64,000 nucleotides of DNA, taken from the IMG/VR virus record IMGVR_UViG_3300024520_000050, positions 96,001 through 160,000 of that record; one strand, written 5' to 3'. The notes under the pieces were generated by a model, which saw nothing but the letters and a program-made list of their open reading frames with translations, was not told the DNA's origin and searched no databases. This document shows, piece by piece, positions 18,701-60,341 of the stretch. The translations under genes and the position numbers were made by a program. Source of the stretch: a virus. Numbering within the stretch: the first letter of the stretch is position 1; each line of letters opens with the position of its first letter.

Positions 18701-19926
18701 GCTGTACCACCCCCTTCGCCACGATTAGTAGTACTCATAACAGAATTTACCAATGCATGATTATTATCTATAGTTGTATAAGAAAATCCATCAGTTTGTA
18801 AGTCTGCAGTAACTCCCACTAAATCAGCTTCTGCATGAATATTTCTATATTTATCTATCATATCACTTTCTTGTGATTTTGTACCATCAACTCCATGACT
18901 AGAAATAGAACTAGTATATGTCCTAACAACAGGTGGTCTTGATTCTGTGTCTGTTCCTGCTCCGTTATTTCCACTTTTAGCAGGTCTTTCTGCTTGATCA
19001 GAATTTTGAGCCATTTTTTGTCTAGTAACATCTGTAGTGTGTAAATCAGTTTTTTCAGATTGACCATATGTAAATATAAGATCTTGAGTTTTCTGACGAG
19101 CATAATCTATTGCTTCTTGTTCACTTTTACCTAATTTATACAATGCATGATCTTTTTGAAGTCTATAATATTGACTTCCTTCACTATCTTTAATAAATCC
19201 ATCTAATGCACCTTTAATAATATGATCTACTTGAGTCCAATTATCTGAATCTTTTTTAGAATGTTTTTGCCAATATGCAACCCAATCAGGGACAGAAGTT
19301 CCATCTGCTAATTTCTTATCAGGTAGTTTTGTAAAGTTAGGATCTTTTGCATACCATGACTTACCACTTATTGTTTTACCTATTTCATCGAATAATCTTT
19401 TAGCTGCTTGGGAATGATCCAAAGTTTTTTCCATTCCCCAATTACCAGTAAATTTACGAGCAGAACCATCATCTAAACGTAATGAACCACTTAAAGGATT
19501 ATAAGTTGGATCGCCAAAATAAGATACTGTACCATTTGCTGATTCTATTTTTTGTTTAATCATAATAGCTTCATCTGCATTTCTTTTAGCTTCAGATAAT
19601 ATTCTAAAATCTGTTTTTCCTGCCCATTCAGTTGCTAATGTTTGAAATTGATCTCTATTTATGCTAGAATAATCTCTATCAGCTGCATCAACCATTGATG
19701 ATACATCTGTACTAAAACCTTTTTCTAATTGTTGTGCTAACTCAAAATCATCATTATGATCACGAGTTTGTTTTAACATGGCTGCTTTACTTTTAGCTAT
19801 CATGTCTCTTAGTTCATTAGCGCGAGTATCCCTCGCGACAATGCCCTCTTTCATACTTGTTATGTCTTCGACATATGGAGTTACTTCACTTACTTTAGCT
19901 GATGTTACACCTTTAATTATTGCCAT
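15721..19926 (-). CDS. Large virion ejected/core protein with C-terminal peptidase M15-like domain
   Basis: 1401 aa, directly upstream of the vRNAP. The C-terminus has SPHMRGNSVDI ... GLHIDV, matching the M15 H-x6-D...H pattern. Confidence 0.7.
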   Translation of the reverse strand: MAIIKGVTSAKVSEVTPYVEDITSMKEGIVARDTRANELRDMIAKSKAAMLKQTRDHNDDFELAQQLEKGFSTDVSSMVDAADRDYSSINRDQFQTLATEWAGKTDFRILSEAKRNADEAIMIKQKIESANGTVSYFGDPTYNPLSGSLRLDDGSARKFTGNWGMEKTLDHSQAAKRLFDEIGKTISGKSWYAKDPNFTKLPDKKLADGTSVPDWVAYWQKHSKKDSDNWTQVDHIIKGALDGFIKDSEGSQYYRLQKDHALYKLGKSEQEAIDYARQKTQDLIFTYGQSEKTDLHTTDVTRQKMAQNSDQAERPAKSGNNGAGTDTESRPPVVRTYTSSISSHGVDGTKSQESDMIDKYRNIHAEADLVGVTADLQTDGFSYTTIDNNHALVNSVMSTTNRGEGGGTADIPEGEGELQSLGAVGEDYKSNSAVIFFKKNDKTKGWENTTTANYENFDAKDGMIKLPGEPDENGNPTFETKSAETLVEQLGDDLFLRSELVTASEGLEDVMKNDLAWSATVAGDGSKGDKSLSTFSVNRYDGEITINPLLYNLEELYTKKLADVNPGGATKILYEAKLLKIQSKIENAKKLQARKAAKFDGITKKVLLNNEHAKILKENFVAIGQQFGFGIETVEEIIEGTEGEESSKFKTNVIESTKKASEVIGLTSLIDNMIAENDANLTKDGNGDLLFTEEESKNHILKLKTIWANHREKIVKGEYKSSDLGPHEVGVDRKHQGLRYGLSAPLKDEIDKDPELTKFLQTYTGNNPLFNSKNHAKLYHSILVESKAFDPPYERGTAGDATPHSYSIKNGYAILNEDVIKNYKTTYKTELSNRFNTQVGDIEGFVDAVESMNDIIENTSVTLYRTSTANTKDAEYAEKTKEEKQIMGSRGMLGDERTTRRAANFRNSKDENFQEQHLKNQIEKQWETLKEDGKTMSYQDYEKTELDKAYKGIRYEADELGGLMVAHYEYIDENNKKWFFEHDAPLDKYSAVKFFGVPMQYYTTGKQLKDGLKKNRRLYADIDNYGNHPQTRVHKANANIGKGESQVKNGQYYVLYKGNSLGEDPNAGSVDYGINEEGISRHAFETVDDFFAYQDKKYPRERQVSESLVNQITQLDNGADVEYVFPKGSIFRDKTKYPTPQSVRNALNSMLEKTLTGGTTVTGGKINASSTIEDLTTTGVVSKNNETGFYQIDATTFDNMNIEDQANLGLKFNEELVNETWYTDTDGHKYLTDPKNLVDITNLNNIRSQSKMKATPAIQTFIKNTDDLLSSIINGNIPQNMKPTDFKMFQGLSSNDKMILTSVLRSLQDNTRAYRNRLDELTRSPHMRGNSVDIKTSGEAGRVGKALWGFFNTYSGNMFLKENGMNALYHDAGTGLHIDVSVATESRPAGETIDHSQKDKS

Positions 19927-24492: not shown

Positions 24493-25121
24493 AAAAATTG
24501 TTTTACTGTTGTTACTTTATATTTTAATTTAGAATCACCTTTGGTCCACTTAACCTTTCCGGTTTTGCGGTCCAATGTTGTCTTCTTGTACACACTTTCC
24601 ACGATCATAGACCTTGGTGTGAATGTCTTCAAAAACAGTGTCTCTTTCTTCGGTTTAGTTGCATAAGGTATAACCTTTTGCACATAAATATTGAATCGTT
24701 GACACATTAATGACTGACGATCAGGGAATGTAGCTGAACTAGTAAGTCCGCGCCCAAACGCTCCCTTGACATCAATGTATATAACACCTCTATTGTTATT
24801 ACAATAAAAGAAAGGGCGACCTTCATAGCCGCCCTTCTTATCATGATAGAGTTTCTTATATGCTTTCTTGTTAAACTTAAATATAAAGTCTGGTGTATAA
24901 TTTCGTTTCTTGGTAAGTATAAATCTTTCTTTCTTTTGTTTGGTTTTCAATTGTGCTACACGCGCGGAGCGCACTTCATTAGTAATCAAATATGTTTTCT
25001 TTTCAGACCATATCCAATCTATATAACCTTGGTCATATAATTCAACCAACCAATCATAGAAGTATCTTTCTTCATCAGAATCGAAATTAAAGTTTATTTT
25101 ACTCTGTAATTTATTATTCAT
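24486..25121 (-). CDS. PD-(D/E)XK nuclease, DUF1064/T7 endonuclease I-like resolvase
   Basis: FDSDEE...YTPDF...YIDVKG. Confidence 0.75.
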   Translation of the reverse strand: MNNKLQSKINFNFDSDEERYFYDWLVELYDQGYIDWIWSEKKTYLITNEVRSARVAQLKTKQKKERFILTKKRNYTPDFIFKFNKKAYKKLYHDKKGGYEGRPFFYCNNNRGVIYIDVKGAFGRGLTSSATFPDRQSLMCQRFNIYVQKVIPYATKPKKETLFLKTFTPRSMIVESVYKKTTLDRKTGKVKWTKGDSKLKYKVTTVKQFLC

Positions 25122-26235
25122 AATCTCTTACCGCGATACCAACAGCTTCAAGTGGTACTTTCTTATTTGAAAGTTTACGATACTCAACCGTAATCATTTG
25201 TCCTTTGACTTTGTCATCGAACTCGGCTGCCCATTTTTCACGTTGAGCACTTGTACCTTTCAATTTTACATGGAATTTTTCGCCGTCTTTAGTCTCACAA
25301 ATTAATGTAGACTGTAGAGCCATCTTACCTTTATTCCAGTAATGATCAATACACTTGAATTCATCAGTTACACGTGGTTTTATTTTCTTTTTACCAGATG
25401 TTCTGAAGCCAAAATCATACATAGAATTAGGGTCACAAAAGATAGTCCCTTCAAAACCTAACTCAAGTGATTCTTTATGGAATGCTATCAACTCTGCATG
25501 AGTATTAATAGGTGTTCCAACATCAACTTTAATGTTAGGTAAATTACTTACATCTAATGCAAGTAATAAACTACGACGTTGAGTGAATGTTAATCCGGGG
25601 ATTGCTATATCATAAATATGATACTCCAATTTTTCATTTGGATCATTACTCTTAACCATACTACCAATGTCTTGTAATGCTACTCCATGCAAATACAATT
25701 CACCATCGAATGTTTCATCCAATTGTTTATCATGCATTTCTGTAACAGAATCAAGAATATGTTGTAGATTAAATATTTTACCTTCACGAGATTTGTTTCT
25801 CACGAGGCCATTATAACGTTCAGCAAAGTTTCTACAACCATCATACTTTCTCTGTGCAAATCCAGGTTTAAATGGACCACTAGCTTCTTTATAAGGATTC
25901 AATAACATCGGCATGTCACTCAAATCCTTAAATGTATTGTACGTAGTAGATTTAACATAAGCTAAATTCAACTTATATCCTTTAGCAAACAATTTGGTAT
26001 GACGACTAACAAGCTCTTTCTCAGCTTGTTGCTTTGCTGTTGTAGCATTCTTCCTACCTAAATTCTTTCCTTCTCTAACTACGACTTTACTAGTCTTAGA
26101 ATTAACTTCATTGCCCACTGTTCCTGTTTCAGTGAACATAGTGTATTCATTTATACCCTTTGTCTTACGAGTATACATTTGCACATAGACTTCCTTTCCA
26201 GGTTTAGCCTTTCTATATAATTTTTTTAACTTCAT
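25114..26235 (-). CDS. ATP-dependent DNA ligase with N-terminal WGR-like region
   Basis: QRKYDGCR (KxDG), FDGELY, YHIYD, EGTI and KKIKP motifs. Confidence 0.92.
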   Translation of the reverse strand: MKLKKLYRKAKPGKEVYVQMYTRKTKGINEYTMFTETGTVGNEVNSKTSKVVVREGKNLGRKNATTAKQQAEKELVSRHTKLFAKGYKLNLAYVKSTTYNTFKDLSDMPMLLNPYKEASGPFKPGFAQRKYDGCRNFAERYNGLVRNKSREGKIFNLQHILDSVTEMHDKQLDETFDGELYLHGVALQDIGSMVKSNDPNEKLEYHIYDIAIPGLTFTQRRSLLLALDVSNLPNIKVDVGTPINTHAELIAFHKESLELGFEGTIFCDPNSMYDFGFRTSGKKKIKPRVTDEFKCIDHYWNKGKMALQSTLICETKDGEKFHVKLKGTSAQREKWAAEFDDKVKGQMITVEYRKLSNKKVPLEAVGIAVRDYE

Positions 26236-34301: not shown

Positions 34302-36242
34302 TTAAAATAAACTATAGTTAAAATCTACAATAGAATTAATTATCTTATTTGCCTCACGTGTATAATAGTTATAGTTAATATCCCATTCTTCTTGCTCTAC
34401 AAATTTATTTAAAATACTCACTTTGTATGCTCTTCCTTTTTGAGGATTAGCTTCCATTTGAGATTCACTACCACAATCATATCGCTTAACAAAATGACCA
34501 CCAATCTTATTACTAATATAATATCGATTAGTTTTTTGTAAAACTGTTTCAGTAATCACTCCATCTTTTACTTCTTTAAGAAGCATTTTAGGCATTCCTT
34601 TAACTGTTTTCTTAGTCTTTTTTGCTAAACAAAAATCAAATATTCCATGGTTTTTTATCTTACCATAATCTCCTGTAGTTAAATGATTTTCAATCGTTTC
34701 TCTAATAGGAATTCCATCAGTGAAATATCTAGATACAGCAATTGATACTACTCTTTTAGAATGATCTTTATGATATTGTAATTCTCCTTTCATCTCTTTA
34801 TCTATCTCAAAAGTACCTTTATACTTAATCTTACCATTTGTATAGACAGCTGCATAGTTATTTACATCTCTAGTAATTAACTTACTATAATGCGAATCCT
34901 CTAGTTCTAACTTTGTCAAATCCTCCCACCACTTTACAATAGCGTGCATTTCATCTAATTTATCTTTATGAATTTTTATTACAATACCATCTGTATTAGC
35001 TTGTAACACAGTAGCTATGTTTGCAAATTTCTCTGCTAACATCGTCAATAATAATTGTCCATTGATAGTAATTGACATAGTAAATTTAGGATCATATAAA
35101 TAACTATATTGGTCATTACTTTTGCCGTATGTACCATTTAATGCCAATTTTAAACCAGCATCAATAACCTTATCTCCACTCTTCTTAGCCGCTCTCCTTG
35201 TATTATAAATCTCTTCATAAATTTCACAGAATACTTCTCCCAAATGTTCAGGATATAAATTATTTTTAATACTCAAATTAGGGTAATAAGAAGCAACATC
35301 CCAATCAATTAAATGATATTCTTCATCAGCTTCGTAAACTCCAGGTGCACAATTACCATGAATACCACCAAGACCATATACATACTCAAGTCCTTTATGT
35401 ATCACTTTAAGGTCTTTAAATACACCTTTAGTTTCTGTGATTGTTTTATTCTTCAAAAATGATAACAAATCATTGAACTCCTTAGATTCAAATTCAACAT
35501 AGTCAAATATACATTCACCTAAGTCAATTTCTGGACGGTAAGTACGTTGATCTCTCAATTGAGCCCAAGTTAAATTTTGTTTCTCACATATAATCTTAGC
35601 AAATATTTCTGATCCTATCTTAGGATCATTTGCGTTAAGTAGTGATAGTCCATATTGTTTTGATATTTTCTTTCTTAATTCAATTTTACCTATACATTCT
35701 AAATATAACTGGTGAGTAGCTAGTACATCATTAAAGTTATACTCCATTGTAGGTTTAATCTGACCTTCAGTAAGCATGTGGTCATGTGCAAATGGTAAGT
35801 CTTGAATATTCTTCCATCTTATTGCAAACTCACACCATTTCAAACCAACCATCTTAGCACGATTATTAAAATGATTAATTAGAAATAAATCTAACTGTGG
35901 AACTCTAGTATTCTTTGGAGAAATACTACAGAATTCACTTCCGATAATCTTGTTTGCAATTGTCTTAATTATTTTAGCTTTCTCATCTCCAGTTTTATTT
36001 TTAAACTGATATGGTTTAGTTAAAATTTTATGGATGACGGGGTAATCGAATCCAATATTATTGAATCCAATCATCCCTTTCATCTCATCGCTTAATGTGA
36101 ATTTAACAAACTCACTTAAATCATCTTGCCATTCACATACAACAAAATCACGTCTTTCATGTGTATCTATATTATAATAAATACAACTAAAAAAGTTACC
36201 AAAAGTCTCGATATCATATACCCAAACTTTTCTATTGACCAA
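34302..36242 (-). CDS. Family B DNA polymerase (crAss-type)
   Basis: ExoI YDIET, ExoII GFNNIGFDYP, DWDVASYYPN, KLALNGTYGK and QANTDG. Confidence 0.95.
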   Translation of the reverse strand: MVNRKVWVYDIETFGNFFSCIYYNIDTHERRDFVVCEWQDDLSEFVKFTLSDEMKGMIGFNNIGFDYPVIHKILTKPYQFKNKTGDEKAKIIKTIANKIIGSEFCSISPKNTRVPQLDLFLINHFNNRAKMVGLKWCEFAIRWKNIQDLPFAHDHMLTEGQIKPTMEYNFNDVLATHQLYLECIGKIELRKKISKQYGLSLLNANDPKIGSEIFAKIICEKQNLTWAQLRDQRTYRPEIDLGECIFDYVEFESKEFNDLLSFLKNKTITETKGVFKDLKVIHKGLEYVYGLGGIHGNCAPGVYEADEEYHLIDWDVASYYPNLSIKNNLYPEHLGEVFCEIYEEIYNTRRAAKKSGDKVIDAGLKLALNGTYGKSNDQYSYLYDPKFTMSITINGQLLLTMLAEKFANIATVLQANTDGIVIKIHKDKLDEMHAIVKWWEDLTKLELEDSHYSKLITRDVNNYAAVYTNGKIKYKGTFEIDKEMKGELQYHKDHSKRVVSIAVSRYFTDGIPIRETIENHLTTGDYGKIKNHGIFDFCLAKKTKKTVKGMPKMLLKEVKDGVITETVLQKTNRYYISNKIGGHFVKRYDCGSESQMEANPQKGRAYKVSILNKFVEQEEWDINYNYYTREANKIINSIVDFNYSLF

Positions 36243-37477: not shown

Positions 37478-37877
37478 TTAGTATACTTCCCCACAACTTG
37501 TAGAAATTAATATCTAATAGGTGTTGTCCTAATGTTCGAGCTGTTTTCTTAGGAATCTTGTCAAATGAACGTTCATTCATCATAGCACAAATCAATGCGT
37601 CAGTAGCACTTTCTTCCATACTCCTTACAACATCATTATAACTACCTACATTTCCTATATGTAATGGATATTTAATCATTACCCCTTTCATTAAACACTC
37701 TTCCCCTGTAATCGTTAGCATTAATTCACCTTTGATATTTGGTTTAAATTGTATTAACTCGAGGGATAACAAACTGTCAACTACTTTTTTCCAATTGTCG
37801 GTCAATTCATAGTCTTTCCCGGCTCGAACAATTAACAAGCATGCTTGCTGCATATCCGATAATTCAAAATTATTCAT
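37371..37877 (-). CDS. Hypothetical protein, possible winged-helix N-terminus
   Basis: VDSLLSLELIQF...LTITGEECL. Confidence 0.5.
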   Translation of the reverse strand: MNNFELSDMQQACLLIVRAGKDYELTDNWKKVVDSLLSLELIQFKPNIKGELMLTITGEECLMKGVMIKYPLHIGNVGSYNDVVRSMEESATDALICAMMNERSFDKIPKKTARTLGQHLLDINFYKLWGSILIGKYQQQCNESMQHFHGLDKKYEKKSKNKHNSNKE

Positions 37878-38607
37878 TATTTTCTGATATTAAGTTAATT
37901 AATCCTGGACTAAGCTTAATATGATCGTTATTTCTCATCCATTTAATATATCTACTTTCATTAATAATTAAATCAGTAATGGTACGACCCATGTGCTTTC
38001 CAAATTTCATTGTGTATTCTGGATTACTTATTGTTGCTCCAGATAGATCATCATATGACAAAATATAATCTTGCCACGGATATCTTTGCTTATTTAATAA
38101 TTTAAGTATATCAACACATGCTATAACATCATTCTTTGCATCATGTGCATTTAAATCCTTTCCAATTAAATATTTATGTACACATTCTAATGTAAGTCGA
38201 TCTAATGATTTAAGTATTTCACTTGGTATTACATTTTTAATAATGTAAAATAAGTCAATAAACTTTGTATTCTTTAAATTCAAATTGACATTATTTCGTG
38301 TAAATAAACTAAGCATCAACGGTACATCATATTTGCAAATATTATATCCACATAAATATTCACTTTGTTCGAATAAGTTAGTTACAGGTTTAACAAGATT
38401 GAGAAAGATTGGTTTATCTTCTACATCTTCTTTTGATATACCATGTACATTACTTGCTGCTTCTGGGATGACCATTTGAGGATTAATCAAACTATCAATT
38501 GTACGCTTTTTCTTATAGTTAACTGCATAAATAGATACAATACCAATAGTATCTATTTTTAATCCAGTTGTTTCTAAATCGAAATACGTTATGTTTTCTT
38601 TTTTCAT
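37870..38607 (-). CDS. DEDDh 3'-5' exonuclease (DnaQ/ExoX-like)
   Basis: FDLETTG, GYNICKYD and AHDAKND; C-terminal MKFGKHMG...YIKWM. Confidence 0.9.
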   Translation of the reverse strand: MKKENITYFDLETTGLKIDTIGIVSIYAVNYKKKRTIDSLINPQMVIPEAASNVHGISKEDVEDKPIFLNLVKPVTNLFEQSEYLCGYNICKYDVPLMLSLFTRNNVNLNLKNTKFIDLFYIIKNVIPSEILKSLDRLTLECVHKYLIGKDLNAHDAKNDVIACVDILKLLNKQRYPWQDYILSYDDLSGATISNPEYTMKFGKHMGRTITDLIINESRYIKWMRNNDHIKLSPGLINLISENNE

Positions 38608-39363: not shown

Positions 39364-39699
39364 TTAACTAACTTTATAATCTGCAATGAAATAAATATAA
39401 TCATCTGCATCTGGTCTACGATGGCTTTTGCTTTTTTCACTTAATCTAAATGGAATTGTTAAACCTACAATGAGTTCATCATTACCAATTATTGTACGTT
39501 CTCGACAAACATCAACTTTAACATCAGTTAAGGAATTAACTAAATCAGCTACACTTTGATATCCAATACTCGAATTAATATTTTCTGCACTTTGTACAAG
39601 TTTAATAAATTGATTCTTAGATATTGTTTTCTTATTATAAATACCATCACTAAACATATTAGCACTATTTATTAGTACTATCTTTTTGTAAATCTTCAT
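39364..39699 (-). CDS. DUF1874 / STIV B116 / AcrIII-1-like protein (His47->Tyr variant)
   Basis: I.NS...S.G.Y...I N-terminus, SSIGYQSVADLVNSL, CRER and FRLSE; colinear with AcrIII-1 family members as recalled. Confidence 0.75.
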   Translation of the reverse strand: MKIYKKIVLINSANMFSDGIYNKKTISKNQFIKLVQSAENINSSIGYQSVADLVNSLTDVKVDVCRERTIIGNDELIVGLTIPFRLSEKSKSHRRPDADDYIYFIADYKVS

Positions 39700-40336: not shown

Positions 40337-41599
40337 TTACATTCTATTTAAAAGTAATTTACCAATTTCTATATCAGCCATAATACCATGTAATTGAATT
40401 TTATCTGTTGCCATTATTTCTAGTCCCATATCTAAACGAAGATCATTAGGAATACCAGAAGTTTTCAAGAAAGCTTTCATGTTATTCATTTGTTTCTTAG
40501 ACAATTTACCATTCAATTCATCTGTACAGTAATATAATAAACGAGTGGTAATAACATTTAAAATATCAACTCTAAGATTACTACCTGTTGCAAAAGGAGT
40601 TATCACTTTCCTTTTAATAAATGCAGGAAAATCTTCAGCATTCAATAACTCTTCTGGTGTTACTAATTTAACTAAGTCATTATTAATAAATGTGGCAAAT
40701 TGAGTTGCTGTAATTTTATCCAACACTCCTTCACCCATAATATTAACCATACCTAAATTCTCTTTTAAATCAGAAAATATACGAATTGTATTTGCAAAAT
40801 ATTCAATTGATCTAGGAGTAGTAAGTTCGCCTGTTTTAATCGTCTCTGGGTTAGCTAATACAAAATTAACCACACGTTCATCGATATCATGATTTAATGC
40901 CCATTTAGCCCATAATTTAGCTTCAAACTCCATAGACATATGAAACATGCGAGTTAATTGTGCATCATCTAATTCAGTGATAGAATAATTTCCTCCACCA
41001 GGATTCGCTGTTAAAATAATACTCCATTTTGGTGGCAATGTCCATGAATCTAATCCACCATCTTGAAGTAATTGCATAATACCATTAATAATACGTTTAC
41101 CCGCACGATTAAAATCATCAATTACAAAGAACCCTTCTTCGGGATCACCTAAATCTACATTAGGTACAAATTGTGGTGGAGATACAATCATTTGATTAGC
41201 TTTATGCATATCTCTTTCCCAACCATTATTGAGATAAGATCCTACAAGATCCTTATCAACTAACTTACTCTTGATAACTTCACCTGATTCATTCTTCAAA
41301 TTAACCCAAGCACCTGTACCTGGCATTCCAAGTAAGTCACCCATTTCTTCAAATTGTGCTGGAGCAATTGACTTAAATCCAATTCCTTTTTCCTTTGCAA
41401 TTTGTTCTGGGATACTTGTCTTACCAATACCGTGTTTTCCCCAAATACATATTGATACTTTCTTTCCACTCTTGGAAGTCTCTGTTACTAAATTAGAAGT
41501 ATGAACATGCTCCATTACATCTTTAATCATATCTGCTGGTAACATCATACCATGATAATCATAATTAATCTGCTTTCCTTTTTTTGCTGTATCAGCCAT
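40337..41599 (-). CDS. MoxR-type AAA+ ATPase
   Basis: GKHGIGKT, E.GDLLGMP, FVIDDFNRA and IILTANP. Confidence 0.88.
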   Translation of the reverse strand: MADTAKKGKQINYDYHGMMLPADMIKDVMEHVHTSNLVTETSKSGKKVSICIWGKHGIGKTSIPEQIAKEKGIGFKSIAPAQFEEMGDLLGMPGTGAWVNLKNESGEVIKSKLVDKDLVGSYLNNGWERDMHKANQMIVSPPQFVPNVDLGDPEEGFFVIDDFNRAGKRIINGIMQLLQDGGLDSWTLPPKWSIILTANPGGGNYSITELDDAQLTRMFHMSMEFEAKLWAKWALNHDIDERVVNFVLANPETIKTGELTTPRSIEYFANTIRIFSDLKENLGMVNIMGEGVLDKITATQFATFINNDLVKLVTPEELLNAEDFPAFIKRKVITPFATGSNLRVDILNVITTRLLYYCTDELNGKLSKKQMNNMKAFLKTSGIPNDLRLDMGLEIMATDKIQLHGIMADIEIGKLLLNRM

Positions 41600-41633
41600 T
41601 TTATTTATTTATTTATATTAATTCTTATAATAA

Positions 41634-43097
41634 TTAAAAATCCATTTTAATTTTAATTCCTTGAAAATCTTCCATGTCCTCTGCAGAACGTCCTTGATTC
41701 TTACTAATTAACCACATAATTGGACAATTACATTTAGGTGGTTGAGGTGCTTCACCATCAGTAAAATATATTAAGCAATCAGGTTTATATATTTCATTAG
41801 CATAATTAATAGGTGGATCAAATGATGTTCCTCCTCTTCCTGTTACTTCTCCTGGAAACTTACCTTTATAATCCCATATTTTACCAACATCATAATCACA
41901 TTCTATAATTTGCACCTCTGCTTCTGATTTATGTATCCAGTGGATCTCACTAAAGAATTCAGCTAATGATTCATTATCCACAGAACCTGATGTATCAATT
42001 GCAACTAGAACCTTACATTCTGTCTTAATCTTTGTACCAGGAAATGTACCGAATCGTTTACTTCTTCTCTTCAATGTAGTTTCAATAAATGATTTCTCAC
42101 CATTGGCAGCAAACTGTCTCAATTGTCTTTTCCAATTAACACTTGGTCTTAAACTTGCAATTAAATCATCAAGATATTGTAATAATCCAGCAGGCATTTT
42201 ACCTCTCCAGTTACTATTACTTTTAGTTTGTGATCGATCTAATTTCTTAACAACCTCACTAACAGTACTATCTACCCATGAATTAGCAAATTCCTTTTGA
42301 CCTTTATTCAATTTAGAAATATCTCCCCATGTTGAATGCATTGTTCGATTATTTTCTTGAGACATAAACTTAGCTAAGTTCTTCTGTGAACTATTCAACT
42401 TACCCCAATTTGGATTATTTTCTAATCCATTTCCTTCATTGCCACCTTGTTGATTACCTTGCTGACCATCTTGTTGATCGCTTTGTTGATTACCTTGCTG
42501 ATTTTGATTACCAGAACCACTTTTTGATTTATCACTTTTTCCACCTTTGGGATTAAGTGTTTGTCTAATCTTTTCTGATTCCTTAATCAATACTGAATAG
42601 TAATAATCAGTTGTTTGATGATTATCAGATCCTGTCCATTCAGGAGTAATGTTAGGAAAGAAATGTGGATAATTCTCTAATAAGGCTAATGTTGGGCGCA
42701 TCTTCTCAGGTATCTTATTCAATAGAATACATTGATGTACAACAAAATCTACTGCTGCATTTGCAAGAGTTTTATTACCATATTTACCCCAATTAAAAAT
42801 GTGCTTAAATAGAATATGTAATATCTCATGTTTTATTACCCAATATTTTGCATTTAAATAATCCTCTGATTTTAAACCTTTATCTCCTCTAATCGTTTCA
42901 GTCCAGAATTTATTATTTACTGCTAAACTCAGCAGATTAGTAGTTGGATTCATACAAATAGCTGCAGTTTGTACAGCATGTTCTCCATCAGTAACTTCTC
43001 TATTTAAATGATTAAAGAAATGCCCATAAAATGATTCTTTAATAATCAATTGTATAGCCGTCTTTTGAATATCCTCTAATACTTCATAATTTGTCAT
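41634..43097 (-). CDS. DUF2201-type putative metallopeptidase + VWA domain protein
   Basis: KHEILH (HExxH), Q/N/G-rich linker, VAIDTSGSV (MIDAS) and YFTDG. Confidence 0.88.
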   Translation of the reverse strand: MTNYEVLEDIQKTAIQLIIKESFYGHFFNHLNREVTDGEHAVQTAAICMNPTTNLLSLAVNNKFWTETIRGDKGLKSEDYLNAKYWVIKHEILHILFKHIFNWGKYGNKTLANAAVDFVVHQCILLNKIPEKMRPTLALLENYPHFFPNITPEWTGSDNHQTTDYYYSVLIKESEKIRQTLNPKGGKSDKSKSGSGNQNQQGNQQSDQQDGQQGNQQGGNEGNGLENNPNWGKLNSSQKNLAKFMSQENNRTMHSTWGDISKLNKGQKEFANSWVDSTVSEVVKKLDRSQTKSNSNWRGKMPAGLLQYLDDLIASLRPSVNWKRQLRQFAANGEKSFIETTLKRRSKRFGTFPGTKIKTECKVLVAIDTSGSVDNESLAEFFSEIHWIHKSEAEVQIIECDYDVGKIWDYKGKFPGEVTGRGGTSFDPPINYANEIYKPDCLIYFTDGEAPQPPKCNCPIMWLISKNQGRSAEDMEDFQGIKIKMDF

Positions 43098-46914: not shown

Positions 46915-47178
46915 TTAAAGGATCTTCTTTTCATAAGTGATACTTCCATTAGACCAATGTATTTTCATGCCTTGTGGCGTCATAGGACCAAGTTTAACTG
47001 CTGTTACTTTTTTAATTCTGTCTGTATTATATGCTGGAAGTCCTTTGAAGAGACTGATAACTTCTTGTTTGAATCCTTCTTTGGTTTGGATTTCTTCTTT
47101 TTCTTCGTCTTTCCAGATTTTCCAGAGTTTGTCGAATTGTTTATTCTTTCGCTTAAATCGTTTTCTTCCAGGATACAT
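46915..47178 (-). CDS. Hypothetical protein
   Basis: 87 aa, protein-like composition; overlapped by the AAA tail. Confidence 0.5.
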   Translation of the reverse strand: MYPGRKRFKRKNKQFDKLWKIWKDEEKEEIQTKEGFKQEVISLFKGLPAYNTDRIKKVTAVKLGPMTPQGMKIHWSNGSITYEKKIL

Positions 47179-48323
47179 GGTTCAGTTTTTAATATGTTAA
47201 GTACACCATTAACATCACGAAGGTGTTTAATACACCATTGTTCTAATTGAGCCATGGATTTAGGCATACATTTAATTTCAGGAAGTACAATTTTAATATC
47301 ATAAAATCTAGTTAAGAATGTAATTACCATATCTCTTGTTGGTGCTTTAAATTCACATTTCAAGTCAACTCTACCTGCACGAATAAGTGCTGGATCTAAG
47401 CTTTCTATGTGATTAGTAGTTAATATAATCATAACATCATTCTTAGCTAATACACCACTTAAGAAGTTAATAAATGCATCAAATTTAACACCTGACTTGT
47501 TAATTCTCTTACGTCCTTTAAATACCAAATCAATATCTTCAATTAATATCATTGAATTTGGTTCTACACAATCAAATGCATTCTTTAAATCATCAAGATC
47601 TGAAATATCACTTAAATCTAAATAATAAATATTCATTCCATATTTATACGCAATAGATGCTGATATTGATGATTTACCTGTACCTGGAAGACCATAATAT
47701 AAATGAGTTAAACTTGTAGATATTTTCTTATCTTTTAATAACGCATTATCATCTTTCCAGGTATCAATTGAGTTTAAAATACTTTCTTTAATGTCTTTAT
47801 TCAATACAATATCCTCAATATTTTTTGGATAATACTTTTTATGTTCTTTCCAATAATGAGTCCAAGTATGAATAATTAACTTATCTTCTTCGGACTTATC
47901 TGATACATATGATTCTCCTACAGTTCTAAGTAAATCATTAATAATAGTCTTATTAACTACTGTTTTTAATGTATAAGTACCTTGTTCTCTTGTGCTATAA
48001 TTATCATCTGATGCTTCTACACTCTTACTTATATGTATTGGATGGCTTTCAAACCAAATAAAAAATGAATCATTTCGTGGTTCATATTTAGGTTCATCGT
48101 CATCATAATGTGCATACGATACTCCTACATTTTGAAACTTATCATGATGATTATTAAGCAACCATTCATTAAATTGATTATAAATTAATTTATTATCTTT
48201 CAATGTAACTTCATAAATTGCTTTATTCTTTGAAGCATTAAACAAAGCTTTGCCAGCCCATAATGTTAATACAGGTGCTTGAGCTTTCAACTGCTTCCCA
48301 ATAAATTCTAGTATTTTACTCAT
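47004..48323 (-). CDS. BCS1-like AAA ATPase
   Basis: YGLPGTGKSS, ILIEDID and LTTNHIESLDPALIRAGRVD. Confidence 0.88.
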   Translation of the reverse strand: MSKILEFIGKQLKAQAPVLTLWAGKALFNASKNKAIYEVTLKDNKLIYNQFNEWLLNNHHDKFQNVGVSYAHYDDDEPKYEPRNDSFFIWFESHPIHISKSVEASDDNYSTREQGTYTLKTVVNKTIINDLLRTVGESYVSDKSEEDKLIIHTWTHYWKEHKKYYPKNIEDIVLNKDIKESILNSIDTWKDDNALLKDKKISTSLTHLYYGLPGTGKSSISASIAYKYGMNIYYLDLSDISDLDDLKNAFDCVEPNSMILIEDIDLVFKGRKRINKSGVKFDAFINFLSGVLAKNDVMIILTTNHIESLDPALIRAGRVDLKCEFKAPTRDMVITFLTRFYDIKIVLPEIKCMPKSMAQLEQWCIKHLRDVNGVLNILKTEPCILEENDLSERINNSTNSGKSGKTKKKKKSKPKKDSNKKLSVSSKDFQHIIQTELKK

Positions 48324-54155: not shown

Positions 54156-54164
54156 ATTGTATTG

Positions 54165-54237
54165 TCGCAGGAGAGAGACTCGAACTCTCGATTTTCGGCT
54201 TATGAAACCGGCGATTTAACCACTAATCTATCCTGCA
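54165..54237 (-). tRNA. tRNA-Met(CAT), initiator-like
   Basis: Cloverleaf with loop UUCAUAA, U1.G72, A11-U24 and G29-C41/G30-C40/U31.G39. Confidence 0.85.
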
Positions 54238-54249
54238 AGATCCGTAAAT

Positions 54250-54394
54250 AAGGAGAGTTTTAATAGAAACAACTATGGTGTGTTCCGCACTGTGCTCACC
54301 TTCTCAGGGTAATACTTATTTACTAGCTTAATTTATACCTCTAAGCGGACTATTGTACTTATTACTTAGACTTTTAGTTTAAACAAATCTCCTT
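54250..54394 (-). ncRNA. Unclassified structured RNA candidate
   Basis: Closing stem AAGGAGA/UCUCCUU enclosing hairpins UCUAAG/CUUAGA, GGUA/UACC and GGUG/CACC; fills the inter-tRNA gap. Confidence 0.4.
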
Positions 54395-54411
54395 TGATAA
54401 ATTAAACTTTG

Positions 54412-54487
54412 TCGTAAAGGTTGGACTCAAACCAACAATCTCATCCATTATGTTGAGGATGTGCCTTTTCCAGCAGACTACTTTACA
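54412..54487 (-). tRNA. tRNA-like gene with 10-nt anticodon loop (possible pseudo-tRNA-Met)
   Basis: Intact acceptor, D, anticodon (CAUCC/GGAUG) and T stems; loop UCAACAUAAU; T-loop UUUGAGU. Confidence 0.65.
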
Positions 54488-54494
54488 ATTTCAG

Positions 54495-54568
54495 GGTGCT
54501 CATTGAGAATTGAACTCAAATTTCATGAACCACAATCATGTGTCCTAGCCATTTGGACGATGAGTACC
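54495..54568 (-). tRNA. tRNA-His(GTG) with encoded G-1
   Basis: CAUGA-UUGUGGU-UCAUG; G-1 opposite C73. Confidence 0.9.
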
Positions 54569-54588
54569 ATTTAAACTTTTGTATTATA

Positions 54589-55311
54589 TTATAATTTAGA
54601 ATTTAATCCTAAAGTTTTTATCCATTTTCTAATTGCATTGTCAGAAACATTATATAGTTTACCAGTTTTAACATAACCAAGTGCTTTAATTTGATTAATT
54701 AATGTTATTGGATCAGGCAAGCTTTTAATGTACTCTTGTCTTTTAAACGTCACACTACAGGGTTTGCATCTTCTTGATGATCTATAAATTTCTATATTGC
54801 AATCTATACATCCCCTAGTGATCTTTTTAATCTTCTTTTTGATTTTTGTATTCTTATGATTTTTACCACAGTAACTATCAGTTTGAGCATGACAATTAGC
54901 GCAAAGTATTTGAAGATTCTCTATTCGATTATCATTATTAACTCCATTAATATGATGTAATTCTAAAGGAGCTGGTTTTCCAAACCACTCACTTAAATTA
55001 CAGTTTTCGCATTGTTTTTGTTTGAAATCTTCTTTAAACAATCTCCTTTTTAAATTTGTTCTAGAACAAGTACTATTTTTAACAAGATATACTTCTATTG
55101 GCTTCTTAATAGAGTTAGTGTTCGTGCCTCCCTTATTCCAACTTTGACCTTTAAAATGAGAAGTATTTAAACTATGTTCTTTAATTTTGTTATGAATTAG
55201 CTCATAACTACTTCCACTGAGTGTCATTCCTAATATCCTACACACTTGAGCAAGTGATATACTATTACTAATTGCGTTTTCAATTTCTTTTTTTGTAAAT
55301 TTATATTTCAT
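54589..55311 (-). CDS. Free-standing HNH homing endonuclease in tRNA array
   Basis: CENC...LELHHINGVNNDNRIENLQILCANCH. Confidence 0.9.
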   Translation of the reverse strand: MKYKFTKKEIENAISNSISLAQVCRILGMTLSGSSYELIHNKIKEHSLNTSHFKGQSWNKGGTNTNSIKKPIEVYLVKNSTCSRTNLKRRLFKEDFKQKQCENCNLSEWFGKPAPLELHHINGVNNDNRIENLQILCANCHAQTDSYCGKNHKNTKIKKKIKKITRGCIDCNIEIYRSSRRCKPCSVTFKRQEYIKSLPDPITLINQIKALGYVKTGKLYNVSDNAIRKWIKTLGLNSKL

Positions 55312-55316
55312 AATTA

Positions 55317-55324
55317 CAAATATA
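55317..55324 (-). promoter_or_regulatory. Bacteroidota-type -7 promoter element TATATTTG of the HNH gene
   Basis: TAnnTTTG ending 5 nt before the ATG at 55311. Confidence 0.55.
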
Positions 55325-55338
55325 ATGAATATAAATTA

Positions 55339-55384
55339 AAAAGGTAGAGTAATGAATACAAACTTGCAATCAACTCTACCTTTT
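55339..55384 (-). terminator. Hairpin/terminator after tRNA-Leu(TAG)
   Basis: 12-bp inverted repeat AAAAGGTAGAGT/ACTCTACCTTTT. Confidence 0.6.
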
Positions 55385-55385
55385 G

Positions 55386-55459
55386 TATCTCTAGTAAGAT
55401 TCGAACTTACACTGAATATGGTCTAAACATATTGCCTCTACCAATTGGGCTATAGAGAT
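55386..55459 (-). tRNA. tRNA-Leu(TAG), short variable region
   Basis: AUAUG-UUUAGAC-CAUAU; A73; 5-nt variable loop. Confidence 0.85.
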
Positions 55460-55477
55460 ATTCCTACCATTATAAGA

Positions 55478-55885
55478 TTACTTATCTTCTATGTCAAGTG
55501 AATAAATACCACTTAATTTATTTGGATCTAATGTCCAATTAGTACTAACTGATGTACTATTCATTATAGCTTTGCCATCTGTAATGTCATGAGAAACAAG
55601 ATTATCGCTACTATTAATAATATGAGTAGCTGGACTTCCAAAATTAAAATCACTATAATCATTACCATAATTAGTATAACCTGGAGAACCATACCACCAT
55701 CTATCCCAATTATGTGGAACATAAAATGGTCGTGTCCAATTAACTTTTTTAATCTTTGTATTAGGTAATAATTCCCAATCTTTCCAATCTGGTAGAATGC
55801 GTTTTATAGTTTTAATAAACATTGCTAAATTGCAAGCTTCGGGTAATAAGATTGTATTATTATCATAATCTAATTGTATTTTCAT
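55478..55885 (-). CDS. Hypothetical protein
   Basis: MKIQLD..N.TI...L.DWK.W pattern. Confidence 0.65.
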   Translation of the reverse strand: MKIQLDYDNNTILLPEACNLAMFIKTIKRILPDWKDWELLPNTKIKKVNWTRPFYVPHNWDRWWYGSPGYTNYGNDYSDFNFGSPATHIINSSDNLVSHDITDGKAIMNSTSVSTNWTLDPNKLSGIYSLDIEDK

Positions 55886-55906
55886 TTGTTAGTTGTTAGG
55901 TATTAA

Positions 55907-55986
55907 AATGATTGTAGACCGGTGACACTTGGTTAAAACTTTAGTAAGTCTGTGGGCGGTATTATTCCCATCTTATAACAATCATT
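55907..55986 (-). ncRNA. Unclassified three-way-junction RNA candidate
   Basis: 9-bp closing stem AAUGAUUGU/ACAAUCAUU with inner UGGG/CCCA and AGAC/GUCU stems. Confidence 0.45.
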
Positions 55987-56004
55987 GTATTTTAATTATA
56001 TTAG

Positions 56005-56077
56005 AGCCTCCGGAGGAATTTGAATCCACAACTTTTACCTTACAAGGGTAACGCTCTACCAGTTGAGCTACGGAGGC
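56005..56077 (-). tRNA. tRNA-Thr(TGT)
   Basis: UUACC-CUUGUAA-GGUAA; GCCUCCG/CGGAGGC. Confidence 0.92.
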
Positions 56078-56253
56078 TTTTATTATTAAGTTTAAAAAAG
56101 GGATAAACTCCCCACAACTCTTTTTTATATGTCTTGTTGTAAACAAGTGCAGACATCTCATACTTCGTGCAAAACGCTTCGCTTTAAAGATAAGACATAA
56201 AATTAAGTAACATGTAACAAAAACTTTATTAGTCTTTATTACATGTTTGTATA

Positions 56254-57102
56254 TTATAGTAATGAATTAATGATCTCTGATCTAGAAAATATAGGAGTTT
56301 CCACAACTTCCCACTTACTTCTAATTTTTACTACATCCTTAAAGTACACAGTTGTAGGATTAACTTGCCAATCTCCATTCTCTAATTGAAAAGCTTCATT
56401 ATTCACCTTATCATCCACATATTGATTCTTTACAATCAAACTACCTCTCTTCTTAGAAAAATGCAAGTCATTCCAATTATGTCCTTTCTGAAAACACATT
56501 TCTTGCATATCAGAACCATTCTTTAAATGTAATTCTTTATGTGAATATAATGATTGTGCTAACATAGCAATACTGTTCTTCTCTGCATCACGTTGACGTG
56601 CTACAAAATAGTTATTTATATCACTTTGTGGTATTGAAAATGCACGTGAATCGAAGTTCGCTAATTTTGGTAAATATGTTTGTTGAACTAATGAAGTTTG
56701 AAGTTCAATGATTTCTGGTTCTTCAGCAAAGCATTTTAAAAACCTCAACTGATTAAATATACCAGTAGCTAAACTAGCACTTACACTAGTCATCTTCTGA
56801 ACATTATAATTAAACCATGCTTCAGTAGTTAACTTATCATAATCAGTAATTAAAATACTAATTTCATCTGATTGTGTATAAGCAGCTTTAGCTCCTTGAA
56901 TGTTTTCACATAAATAAATAGCGGTTTTCTGCATATCTTCAATTAAACCCTCATCAAAAGGTTTATTTAATCCTTTAGTATAAGAACTAAATTTTTTTCC
57001 ATCAATACGACAGATAACTGGAACATGTCTAGATAAATAATAACGATTTCTATTTTCGTAATATTCTTTCATTCTAGTCATTATAGGGCATTTTCTACTC
57101 AT
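56254..57102 (-). CDS. Thg1-like 3'-5' nucleotidyltransferase (TLP)
   Basis: ICRIDGKKF, AYTQSDEIS, QKMTSVSAS, FDSRAF and RQRDAEKNS. Confidence 0.95.
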   Translation of the reverse strand: MSRKCPIMTRMKEYYENRNRYYLSRHVPVICRIDGKKFSSYTKGLNKPFDEGLIEDMQKTAIYLCENIQGAKAAYTQSDEISILITDYDKLTTEAWFNYNVQKMTSVSASLATGIFNQLRFLKCFAEEPEIIELQTSLVQQTYLPKLANFDSRAFSIPQSDINNYFVARQRDAEKNSIAMLAQSLYSHKELHLKNGSDMQEMCFQKGHNWNDLHFSKKRGSLIVKNQYVDDKVNNEAFQLENGDWQVNPTTVYFKDVVKIRSKWEVVETPIFSRSEIINSLL

Positions 57103-57107
57103 AATAA

Positions 57108-58043
57108 TTATTTTTTAAATTTCCAAATAAAATTTTTATATTTCTTTCTTTCTCCTCTACAACATTTTGATATTGCAGATGCATTAAAATTTAACTGTTT
57201 CTTAATTTCTTGTCCACTGTTCCATGTTTTTATTAAATTATTATTAAGATCGTACTGACATATTACTTTCTTCATATCCTTCGGAATGTATAAATTTGAT
57301 TTCCTTAGATGATTCTTAATAGAATTTATAGCAACATTATATTTTTTAAATAATGCATATGCAGATTCCCCATTAACATAGTCTTGTTGTATTATTGTAA
57401 ATAATTTTTCAGATGTAAATACAGGTTGCTTATTTATATAAGGTGAATAATCCCATTTATACGCATAACAACTTGGATAATTATTTCCAATATATTCTAA
57501 AAATGTTTTAGATTCTCTTTTACGTATTCTAATATAAGGTAGATTATTCTCATTATAATTAATTCTAGCTTTGAATTGAATAAGTTGATTACATAAAAAT
57601 TGATTATCATTTACAGTAAAGCAATAAGTTGCTAATTTTATATCTTCACTTCTTTTATTTCTAGAATTTCTTAGTAAACAACCATCCCCAATATACCAAT
57701 ATAAGCAATGTATTTTATTTAATACTAGACATAATGGTATTATTTTTATTCTATTAATATACCACAAGTGGTATATTTTTGTAAATTCAGGAAGAGATCT
57801 TGTTCGGAATACATAACTAGTGTAAGTTTTATTAGTTCTTTTATCGTACACTTTTCTTTTTAAAGGTCCAAGTTCATATACTGTTCCTTTTGCAAATTCT
57901 AAAAAATTAGAACTAACAAATTCACAATGTTCTTTTTGAGATGAAGTGTAAGAAAAGTATGCATTTTTAGCTTTCTTAGCTTTGATAATACAACCATCTC
58001 CCAATAAACATCCTTCTAGTATCTCTTTTTGTTTTTGATTCAT
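57108..58043 (-). CDS. Free-standing LAGLIDADG homing endonuclease with C-terminal NUMOD1 DNA-binding domain
   Basis: GCLLGDG and YWYIGDG; C-terminal QYDL.NNLIK.W.S...ISKCCRG..K.YKNFIW. Confidence 0.88.
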   Translation of the reverse strand: MNQKQKEILEGCLLGDGCIIKAKKAKNAYFSYTSSQKEHCEFVSSNFLEFAKGTVYELGPLKRKVYDKRTNKTYTSYVFRTRSLPEFTKIYHLWYINRIKIIPLCLVLNKIHCLYWYIGDGCLLRNSRNKRSEDIKLATYCFTVNDNQFLCNQLIQFKARINYNENNLPYIRIRKRESKTFLEYIGNNYPSCYAYKWDYSPYINKQPVFTSEKLFTIIQQDYVNGESAYALFKKYNVAINSIKNHLRKSNLYIPKDMKKVICQYDLNNNLIKTWNSGQEIKKQLNFNASAISKCCRGERKKYKNFIWKFKK

Positions 58044-58124
58044 TTTAATATGTATAATTAGTATAGTATGAATGACTTTCCATAAATATACACATTATAT
58101 ATTAATTATACGAATCAAACAATA

Positions 58125-58175
58125 TTAATCATAGTTCTCTTTCATGCGTTGCATGATTGGACAATTCTTACTCAT
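58125..58175 (-). pseudogene. 16-codon remnant duplicate of the Thg1 N-terminus
   Basis: MSKNCPIMQRMKENYD* versus Thg1 MSRKCPIMTRMKEYYE (11/16 identical); its ATG overlaps the radical SAM stop. Confidence 0.8.
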
Positions 58176-59058
58176 GATTTATTGATTTAAAATATTCACT
58201 AATCGTATAATCATTCCAGTTATACTTTTCTTTACTTCTACTTGATCTACTAAATGTTTGTTCTACAGCATTAATATAAAATGAATGTTCTCCTTGATAG
58301 AATTTATTCCAATTATCATCAGAAAATAATCTACGTAGCTTTAGTTGTTCTAATGCTAAGTTATCAAAACTAGTAATATCAAATGTTTTAATGCAGTGAT
58401 TTATCCACCACTTCCATTGTTGATGATTTAAACTATCAATGTCTACTTGTCCGGTATTGGCGCCGAAGTCTTTTTCTCCGAGTATGAGTAACTTTTTTAC
58501 TCCTTTGTTGTGTAATTCAATTACATCATTGATAGTATCAATGCCCATAATTACATGAAATACAGTGTTCTCATAGTTAAGTATTTCATTAGGTACATTC
58601 CAAGTTAAACTACTACGATATGATATACCTAATCCTTTGATTAAATCCATATCGATACATTTTAATATGTCAAATATATCACGTTTAATATGACCTTGAT
58701 TAACTGTAAGATTGCATATGAAACCTTTAATTTTACACCAAAATAAAAAGAACATTAAATTATGAGTTAATTTATTACATCCAATAGCTAATTCAATACC
58801 TGGTGGAATACCCTTTAATTTAGCTTTCAACGCAGTGTAATCACATTCTAATCCATTCACCTTAGCCGACTCATGACAGAAGCTACATAGCACATAGGAA
58901 CCGTTATCTCGTTGCCCAAATGAACATTGATTAGATACTCGTATGTCGATATTTAAAGGATGATCTAATTTCATAGAACCTTCAAATTCTATAATTCGTG
59001 TACCAACATTATCAATTGTAATAGAACAATTTCCATTATTATATTTAACTAATTGCAT
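58168..59058 (-). CDS. Radical SAM-like protein with expanded CX12CX2C motif
   Basis: IDIRVSNQC-SFGQRDNGSYVL-CSFCHE; later SYRS, FHVIMGI and SFDNLALEQL. Confidence 0.75.
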   Translation of the reverse strand: MQLVKYNNGNCSITIDNVGTRIIEFEGSMKLDHPLNIDIRVSNQCSFGQRDNGSYVLCSFCHESAKVNGLECDYTALKAKLKGIPPGIELAIGCNKLTHNLMFFLFWCKIKGFICNLTVNQGHIKRDIFDILKCIDMDLIKGLGISYRSSLTWNVPNEILNYENTVFHVIMGIDTINDVIELHNKGVKKLLILGEKDFGANTGQVDIDSLNHQQWKWWINHCIKTFDITSFDNLALEQLKLRRLFSDDNWNKFYQGEHSFYINAVEQTFSRSSRSKEKYNWNDYTISEYFKSINHE

Positions 59059-59068
59059 AGTTTAAAGT

Positions 59069-59569
59069 TTAATGATTATCATTATCTGTTTCTAATACTG
59101 AATTACTTGAGAATAAGAATGCTTTTACTAACTCTTTATCTTCAAATATATGATGAAGTTCTTCTCCGTCAACTGAACCATGATCTATTCCACCAGATTC
59201 CCATCCATAACTTTTATAAGTAACTGTCTTACCATTGTGTTCATATGATTTCATTTCATAGTTCATCATATCTTCTATATAAACAACAGATTTACATTGA
59301 GTAACTTCTTTGATACATTCTTCTAATGTACGAAAATGATCTTCTTCTTTATCATTAGACCAATCACGACAATAGATAGCTAAGTATGATGCTTTAGTGT
59401 CAAAATCATAATGATGATCTTGTTCCCACCCAAAATCTTGTGGATAAATGTTAATATCACCATTCTCATCAGGAGTTGGTATATTATTTAATGTATCATT
59501 TTCACTGATACTTATACTATGACAACTACTCGAGTTTGTCTCAAATACTCTTTTTCTTACTACTTTCAT
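59069..59569 (-). CDS. Conserved hypothetical FETNSSS-motif protein
   Basis: RKRVFETNSSSCHS, IDHGS and C-terminal DNDN. Confidence 0.75.
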   Translation of the reverse strand: MKVVRKRVFETNSSSCHSISISENDTLNNIPTPDENGDINIYPQDFGWEQDHHYDFDTKASYLAIYCRDWSNDKEEDHFRTLEECIKEVTQCKSVVYIEDMMNYEMKSYEHNGKTVTYKSYGWESGGIDHGSVDGEELHHIFEDKELVKAFLFSSNSVLETDNDNH

Positions 59570-59595
59570 TAGTTAGTTTTATTTATTTTAGTTAG

Positions 59596-59988
59596 TTAAT
59601 TTAAACATAAATCAAGTATAAACCTTCTTTTTCGCTTATTCATATCAGTATTCGTTAATTGATAACTCAACGATCCAACTAAATGGGCATTTCTAATAGT
59701 AATTATACAACTATCTATTCCATAAACAACTATAAATAAACCATTTCTAGATAGTGATTCTACGCGATCTACTTTACGTTTTCCTAATTGTACATCACTA
59801 TCTGAAAGAATCATTAAAAACTGTTCATTCGATAAACAAGCATATAATGGATCATTAAAAATACCATAATTATTCTGCATTAGAGTAGTTACATTTAACA
59901 ATTCACGTGCTAGTTTTAAATGACCAGCATTTAAGAATTGTAATACTTTTTCATAGTAATTATCTACTTTTGCTTGATCTATATTCAT
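59596..59988 (-). CDS. Hypothetical protein
   Basis: 130-aa ORF. Confidence 0.55.
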   Translation of the reverse strand: MNIDQAKVDNYYEKVLQFLNAGHLKLARELLNVTTLMQNNYGIFNDPLYACLSNEQFLMILSDSDVQLGKRKVDRVESLSRNGLFIVVYGIDSCIITIRNAHLVGSLSYQLTNTDMNKRKRRFILDLCLN

Positions 59989-60033
59989 ATTGTTTTAGTT
60001 TAATTAGTTATATATAACTTGTTGATAATCAAG

Positions 60034-60338: not shown

Positions 60339-60341
60339 ATA

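Follow-up and report, generated by a model that had tools for sequence, protein, structure and literature searches.

A tyrosine-type branch of the DUF1874 (AcrIII-1) family represented by a gene of a distant crAss-like phage

The window analysed here, a stretch of 64,000 nucleotides that forms part of a 178.4-kb IMG/VR virus record, encodes a small protein of the DUF1874 family in which tyrosine (Tyr47) occupies the position of the catalytic histidine of AcrIII-1, the reference viral enzyme against cyclic-oligoadenylate signalling, which degrades cA4, the alarm molecule of type III CRISPR. Tyr47 is not a lone substitution but the trait of a whole clade, and this Tyr-type branch of DUF1874 is apparently undescribed; we found no mention of it in the papers searched that name DUF1874 or AcrIII-1. 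Taking together the readings in which these proteins cleave a signal and those in which they bind one, some role in cyclic-oligoadenylate or related nucleotide signalling is fairly probable. The explanation that we prefer, counter-defence by cyclic-oligoadenylate cleavage with a Tyr/Lys chemistry, is suggested by sequence comparison, the predicted fold and genomic context and is held tentatively, at somewhat less than even confidence.

The gene lies on the minus strand of the window (39364..39699) and consists of 111 codons and a stop; its codons were checked by hand on the window DNA (Table 1). The first-pass annotation had singled out residues S44-I45-G46-Y47, R66, R85 and E88 in this ORF, which codon reading confirmed, and had given H47, R66, R85 and E88 as the corresponding residues of SIRV1 gp29. 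This is accurate, as gp29 (AJ414696, ORF114) carries all four under the same numbers; for E88, however, the correspondence is one of numbering only, because the hhalign alignment ends before it, at L86, and the lid loop is displaced in the MAFFT alignment. Translation from M1 involves a 35-nt overlap with the upstream ORF. This start is supported, because residues 1-14, which include strand 1, N11 and S12, are kept in homologues. The public 97-aa gene calls of this protein and of a homologue (P0002 and P0005) begin at Met15 and lose the first strand with N11 and S12 (window 39657-39699).

Table 1. Positions of the features discussed (window coordinates unless a contig is named) and representatives of the HTH fusions
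Feature	Position or representatives	Strand	Remark
N11 codon	39667..39669	-	equivalent of the gp29 cA4-contact residue Asn8
Y47 codon (TAT)	39559..39561	-	position of the gp29 general-acid His47
R66 codon	39502..39504	-	gp29 cA4-contact residue
R85 codon	39445..39447	-	gp29 lid-loop 'lock' arginine
E88 codon	39436-39438	-	hand-read on the sequence
K91 codon	39427..39429	-	lid-loop Lys peculiar to the Tyr-type clade
MoxR/CobS-like AAA+ ATPase	40337-41599	-	PHROG ATPase and CobS-like matches
DUF2201 metallopeptidase-VWA protein	41634-43097	-	Pfam DUF2201
DnaQ-like exonuclease	37870-38607	-	downstream replication module
Family A DNA polymerase	34302-36242	-	downstream replication module
MoxR/VWA neighbourhoods	window 40337-43097; L032:4092-6536; L007:7010-9636; L008:1-1622; L050:3181-3732		
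N-terminal HTH fusion, Tyr-type	P0078, P0115, P0030		
C-terminal HTH fusion, Tyr-type	P0038, P0107, P0110		
N-terminal HTH fusion, His-type	P0093, P0159		

The Pfam family PF08960 (DUF1874) matches residues 8-88 of the product with an E-value of 1.2e-7 and 32.3 bits; the gathering cut-off is 26, and the match is therefore not due to chance. PHROG 5063 (function unknown) also matches the ORF, and no Pfam family besides PF08960 was found with the query at E 1 or below. An AF2 model made from a 116-sequence alignment reached a pLDDT of 87.5 and a pTM of 0.81. The top Foldseek ranks for this model were taken by Csx1-Crn2 with cA4, AcrIII-1 with cA4, STIV B116 and AFV3-109 (probability 1.0, TM 0.67-0.76), and VIA-align returned Z scores of 13.8 (8y7g), 13.3 (6scf), 13.0 (2j6b) and 11.5 (2j85) over 94-106 residues, with a Z of 2.7 for the best unrelated chain. 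Membership in DUF1874 by sequence and fold is thus secure: the case that would have spoken against it, a lack of any DUF1874 match or fold, was not borne out, and the product is predicted to have the AcrIII-1-type fold that had been expected of it. The placement of a tyrosine at the catalytic-histidine position also holds. HMMER against PDB chains sets SSIGYQS of the query over SAIGHQA of AFV3-109; a profile of the close homologues sets IGY over IGH of Csx1-Crn2, AFV3-109, gp29 and STIV B116 (and over IGA of 8y7g, an H495A mutant); and hhalign of the clade alignment against gp29 gives a match of 95% probability in which Y47 falls on H47.

Among 15 close homologues (52-79% identity), which come mostly from large phage contigs, G46-Y47 is invariant, and the majority have Pro in place of E88. 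When 1.84 billion representative proteins were searched with a profile, 428 matched at E 1e-3 or below; the best 150 of these, taken with the close homologues, comprise 160 rows with Y at column 47, 5 with H and 1 with W. We then inferred a tree from 181 rows, including 20 added classical His-type sequences (gp29, SIRV2, STIV, SMV4 and others), with column 47 omitted. A branch with an SH-aLRT of 93 divides 160 Tyr-clade rows from 21 classical His rows. Within the 160-row clade column 47 holds 156 Y, 3 H, 1 W and no F, and the trait requires 5 changes on the tree as against 23.9 when the labels are shuffled. The query scored 99.3 bits against a Tyr-type HMM from which its own subclade had been left out and 42.0 bits against a classical His-type HMM, whereas gp29 scored 37.1 and 171.3 bits, respectively. 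PF08960 matches 115 of 116 Tyr-type clade members, and no other Pfam family was found in these 116 proteins at E 0.01 or below. The initial description of the protein as one that matches AcrIII-1 at the key positions except residue 47 consequently needs revision: there was no single swap, since Tyr is fixed across a large, old clade in which the pocket is altered too, and E88, which had been named among the conserved residues, is replaced by Pro in 67% of that clade.

The Tyr-type clade is so far essentially metagenomic. We found no match by tblastn with P0001 and P0034 against 50,697 deposited phage genomes, or with P0069 against 72,556 plasmids, in searches where single-sequence tblastn is weak (about 30% identity over 100 residues), and none by megablast of the locus against deposited phages. 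DUF1874 as a family is rare in sampled cellular genomes, being present in 2 of 401 from Bacteroidota (1 Tyr-type), 8 of 401 from Nitrospirota (2 Tyr-type), 2 of 401 from Chloroflexota (both Tyr-type) and 3 of 93 from Caldisericota (2 Tyr-type).

The two clades have in common N11 (N8 of gp29; 93% of Tyr-type and 100% of classical rows), G46, R66 (95% and 100%) and R85 (99% and 100%). Confined to the Tyr-type are G19 (97%), Y21 (97%), P16 (89%), K/R81 (79%), P88 (67%), K91 (96%) and D100 (86%), and to the classical type S11 (90%), N13 (81%), S49 (81%), T50 (90%), G89 (100%) and L92 (100%); the column of K91 is an invariant Leu in classical His-type proteins. In gp29 the side chains of N8, S11, N13, S49, T50, R66, Q81 and R85 touch cA4, and R85 is the 'lock' arginine of the lid loop (bioRxiv 10.1101/778746). 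Three of these eight contacts are clade-wide in the Tyr-type. Subject to an uncertain alignment of the N-terminal part and the lid loop, the query keeps N11 (=N8), S49, R66 and R85 and has S11 changed to N14, N13 to F16, T50 to V and Q81 to T; in the clade consensus S11 becomes M, N13 becomes P, Q81 becomes K/R and S49 is variable. The lid loop of the query reads R-L-S-E-K-S-K and that of the clade consensus R-V-x-P-x-x-K-G; the classical R85-L-E-E-G-K-(V/I)-L, which shuts over bound cA4, is absent, and the query also lacks G89 and L92, which are invariant in classical rows. Because several of the gp29 contacts to cA4 are unconserved and the lid loop is rebuilt, the ligand may differ from cA4.

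According to the explanation that we prefer, a dimer with the DUF1874 fold would, during infection, remove a cyclic-oligoadenylate alarm, most likely the cA4 of type III CRISPR, which would keep CARF effectors (Csx1, Can2/Card1, Cam1) switched off. The ligand would sit between the two subunits, as it does in AcrIII-1, and Tyr47, perhaps with Lys91 of the lid loop, would take the place of His47 in giving a proton to the 5'-O leaving group. Cleavage would be metal-independent and would produce linear A2>P. Poxins and like metal-independent nucleases use sets of His, Tyr and Lys. The hydroxyl of the tyrosine, and not just its aromatic ring, appears to matter, because column 47 holds only residues with a donor group and never Phe. 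Features of the pocket also count in favour of this explanation: the anion-binding N11, R66 and R85 have been kept, and K91 and K/R81 gained. The rebuilding of the pocket and lid as a whole counts against cleavage. The lost histidine may equally mean lost catalysis, because the H47A substitution lowers the activity of gp29 more than 2500-fold, as reported in the founding AcrIII-1 paper, where His47 was called absolutely conserved (10.1101/778746).

Genomic context bears on this question. Only two of about 13 independent Tyr-type contexts are linked to CRISPR loci, a count that speaks against the preferred explanation. These two cases are the most informative result of the analysis. On the Nitrospirota contig L033 the Tyr-type gene (3989-4312, minus strand; its protein scores 89.8 bits against the Tyr-type and 50.2 against the classical HMM) belongs to a four-gene operon (325-4312) divergent from cas1, cas2 and cas6. 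Four nucleotides past it lies the gene for a 589-aa protein in which a Cas_NE0113 CARF domain is fused to a sigma54-type AAA+, a combination that suggests transcription controlled by cyclic oligoadenylate. The next gene encodes a 324-aa Can2/Card1 homologue (Pfam CARF_Card1 and Card1 endonuclease; PDB 7bdv, E 1.8e-25), and the fourth a 301-aa CARF protein. No CRISPR repeats were found on this 12-kb contig, and the only Cas10 signal was a sub-threshold Cas10 palm match elsewhere in the MAG, so that the CRISPR type is read from the CARF effectors and not from Cas10. A 1000-aa ORF of L033 had no relative in the PDB, and at BLAST level neither the window and its genome nor the other Tyr-type loci contained relatives of the CRISPR proteins of this contig. 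The second case is P0095, which carries the Tyr-type clade motifs and is encoded between csm5 (RAMP; PDB 6mur, E 4e-17) and an overlapping gene for 398 aa with a weak Csx1-like/CRISPR-associated match (8y75, E 7e-4). These two gene positions are those occupied by Crn2 and other ring nucleases, and an off-switch enzyme would be expected in such host loci. The overall distribution mirrors the split between His-type Crn2 and AcrIII-1: the CRISPR loci of hosts contain a few copies, and viruses and other mobile elements carry many. Can2 and Card1 are cA4-activated nucleases, and the members found in CRISPR loci beside CARF effectors make a role in cyclic-oligoadenylate signalling more likely than one in CBASS.

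Binding without cleavage, which we judge unlikely but the strongest of the alternatives, would make the protein a sponge for cA4 or another cyclic oligonucleotide (maybe cA3, cA6 or a CBASS signal), with Tyr47 forming hydrogen bonds or stacking. It is consistent with the absence of the proven general acid, with the remodelled lid loop and contact residues and with the Trp at column 47 of one clade member, and sponges are common among phage strategies. Fusions of DUF1874 to HTH domains (XRE-type or other), found by clustering extensions in at least six Tyr-type and two His-type representatives and phage-encoded in contig L032, point the same way; we found no description of them in the papers searched. 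Their architecture is the usual one of a ligand-sensing domain linked to a DNA-binding output, as in CARF-HTH regulators, and argues that in both clades the DUF1874 domain serves to bind small molecules. They are possibly one-component regulators sensing cyclic oligoadenylate, and for a domain used as a sensor binding would be needed and cleavage would not. Sister HTH-fused proteins differ at column 47 (Y in P0078, H in P0159 and P0093), a swap which suggests that the two residues have equivalent roles and which we count in favour of cleavage. Stacking alone, however, cannot explain a column without a single Phe in 160 rows; the genes in host CRISPR loci are easier to explain as signal-degrading off-switches; and stoichiometric sequestration by a small protein with a single site per dimer would be costly.

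Among the other longer forms, one fused protein of 236 aa has no second Pfam domain, and Pfam searches of ten longer representatives found no informative partner besides likely read-through gene calls. P0152 (241 aa) carries the His-type DUF1874 domain twice in tandem, and the two copies share 57% identity. It is possibly a pseudo-dimer within one chain, which by analogy hints, indirectly, at a homodimer that binds its ligand between the subunits.

The phage that carries the gene is, judging from its marker proteins, a distant crAss-like phage, as the first-pass annotation had proposed: the only matches of its large terminase are to Crassvirales and phages of Bacteroidota (27-28% identity), and portal and major-head PHROGs are present in the genome. 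A giant ORF of 6557 aa (5231 in the window; window 1-15693, genome 92020-111693) is followed by a 1401-aa ORF without a PHROG match (window 15721-19926, genome 111721-115926), and by analogy the two look like the giant virion proteins that are usual in crAss-like phages. ARAGORN identified 13 minus-strand tRNA genes at window 54164-63968 (Met, His, Leu, Thr, Arg, Trp, Ile, Tyr, Ser x2, Cys, Gly and Asp). A GroEL-like chaperonin (L022:6063-7622, genome 49063-50625; phrog_5725, E 1.8e-104) is encoded between the portal and major head genes. The window also holds an ATP-dependent DNA ligase (25114-26235; phrog_114, E 1.2e-59) and a second AAA+ ATPase (47004-48323; phrog_7485).

The DUF1874 gene itself sits within a replication module. 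Read along the coding strand, DUF2201-VWA comes first, then the MoxR/CobS-like ATPase, two small ORFs, DUF1874, a 235-aa ORF, the exonuclease and later the DNA polymerase, so that the MoxR-VWA pair is two small ORFs upstream of the DUF1874 gene; this order is syntenic in two related phage contigs (L005 and L006). Most Tyr-type members elsewhere are also found on viruses, on integrative elements and, in one case, on a conjugative element. They include a phage-like contig (L002), a head-tail virus that was placed in a bin with Thermosphaera (L007) and a relative of it (L008), three Saprospiraceae MAG loci in which a tyrosine integrase adjoins the gene (two loci) or is two genes away (one), an element with relaxase, NikA and ArdC, and a Caldisericota contig with small co-oriented genes. 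AAA_5/MoxR-like ATPases, often with a VWA partner, recur at distances of up to about 3 kb from Tyr-type genes in three unrelated virus lineages, of which that of the window is one. On the L032 phage a bpMoxR and a weak VWA protein lie about 3 kb upstream of the HTH-DUF1874 fusion; in L007 and L008 an AAA_5 ATPase, one or two genes off, is accompanied by a 602-aa partner, with differing gene order; and L050 has a weak VWA_CoxE match. This recurrence could reflect a functional module or merely a shared early-gene location.

Such neighbours, together with the syntenic position inside the replication module, are what would be expected if the protein had a role outside defence signalling, as an accessory of replication or of the MoxR-VWA pair, or as an inhibitor of a host protein. 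A precedent for the last is SIRV2 gp37, a DUF1874 protein which acts through a host protein by inhibiting a lysine methyltransferase and is perhaps no Acr in native infection (bioRxiv 10.1101/2023.01.10.523387). We consider a role of this kind less likely again than binding without cleavage. The most conserved residues are those of the pocket common to the cA4-binding relatives; a replication role does not easily account for the HTH fusions or for the two members in CRISPR loci; and the MoxR link is seen in only about 4 of 13 contexts, for which a shared early-gene location could account.

We give similarly little weight to a further reading, in which the Tyr-type would be a separate functional class rather than a slower AcrIII-1: a dimer whose Tyr/Lys pocket would recognise some other nucleotide signal or would sense cyclic oligoadenylate and leave it intact. 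Its members would act as a sponge when borne by a mobile element and as a sensor of the host's alarm when fused to HTH in a phage, and in several viruses they might work in company with the MoxR-VWA module. Finally, the absence of the catalytic His might mark an inactive relic of an AcrIII-1 gene, but this is very improbable and is contradicted by the conservation pattern, given the invariance of G46-Y47 across the close homologues, the fixation of Tyr in a deep clade (156 of 160 rows) that has other invariant residues of its own, the intact frame and the confident model.

The Tyr-type clade, which comprises at least about 160 sequence clusters (50% identity) and in which Tyr is fixed and the lid loop rebuilt, makes up a large part of DUF1874 that cannot be annotated as AcrIII-1 ring nuclease on homology alone. 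This part spans crAss-like phages, archaeal and bacterial viruses, integrative and conjugative elements and some CRISPR loci. If Tyr-type proteins cleave cA4, the fold would have given rise to two different catalytic solutions, and the reach of counter-defence against type III CRISPR would be widened into Bacteroidota phages; if they only bind, or bind another signal, they would form a new family of sponges or sensors. The CRISPR-linked members supply natural partner effectors (Can2/Card1 and Csx1-like).

Several known systems invite comparison. Csx16 (VVA1548 family) is a small CRISPR-associated cA4 ring nuclease whose fold is weakly like that of AFV3-109 (bioRxiv 10.1101/2024.09.24.614671); identity with it was rejected, as its profile (PF09652) matched neither the query (E 1 or below) nor the 116 Tyr-type proteins (E 0.01 or below). 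The sponges Tad1, Tad2, Acb2 and Acb4 would be functional analogues should the Tyr-type bind without cleaving, but their folds and families are unrelated; the query matches only PF08960, and Acb4 is PF13876, so that membership in the known sponge families was also rejected. YddF of the Bacillus subtilis element ICEBs1 is a DUF1874 protein on a conjugative element, and Tyr-type genes are likewise found beside integrases and on the relaxase/ArdC element. YddF was within the alignment from which His47 was called absolutely conserved (10.1101/778746), and a B. subtilis control genome matches PF08960.

The best match among solved chains, by sequence and by structure, is Crn2 in the Marinitoga Csx1-Crn2 fusion (PDB 8Y6Z, 8Y7F and 8Y7G; E 1.6e-6, Z 13.8). 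Some Tyr-type members resemble Crn2 in being encoded in CRISPR loci beside CARF effectors; Crn2, however, keeps the catalytic His (H495 in the fusion), whereas the window protein is standalone, phage-borne and has Tyr. AcrIII-1 (SIRV1 gp29; PDB 2X4I and 6SCF), STIV B116 and AFV3-109 share with it the Pfam family, the fold (Z 11.5-13.3), a similar size and carriage by viruses. At a sequence identity of about 20% to AcrIII-1, the query has N8, G46, R66 and R85 at equivalent positions, but His47 is replaced by Tyr. The Tyr-type lacks S11 and N13 of AcrIII-1 and has gained G19, Y21, K91 and D100, and in place of the classical motifs AIGH-x-ST and QRLEEGK(V/I)L it carries S-x-IGY and R-x-x-(P/E)-x-x-K.
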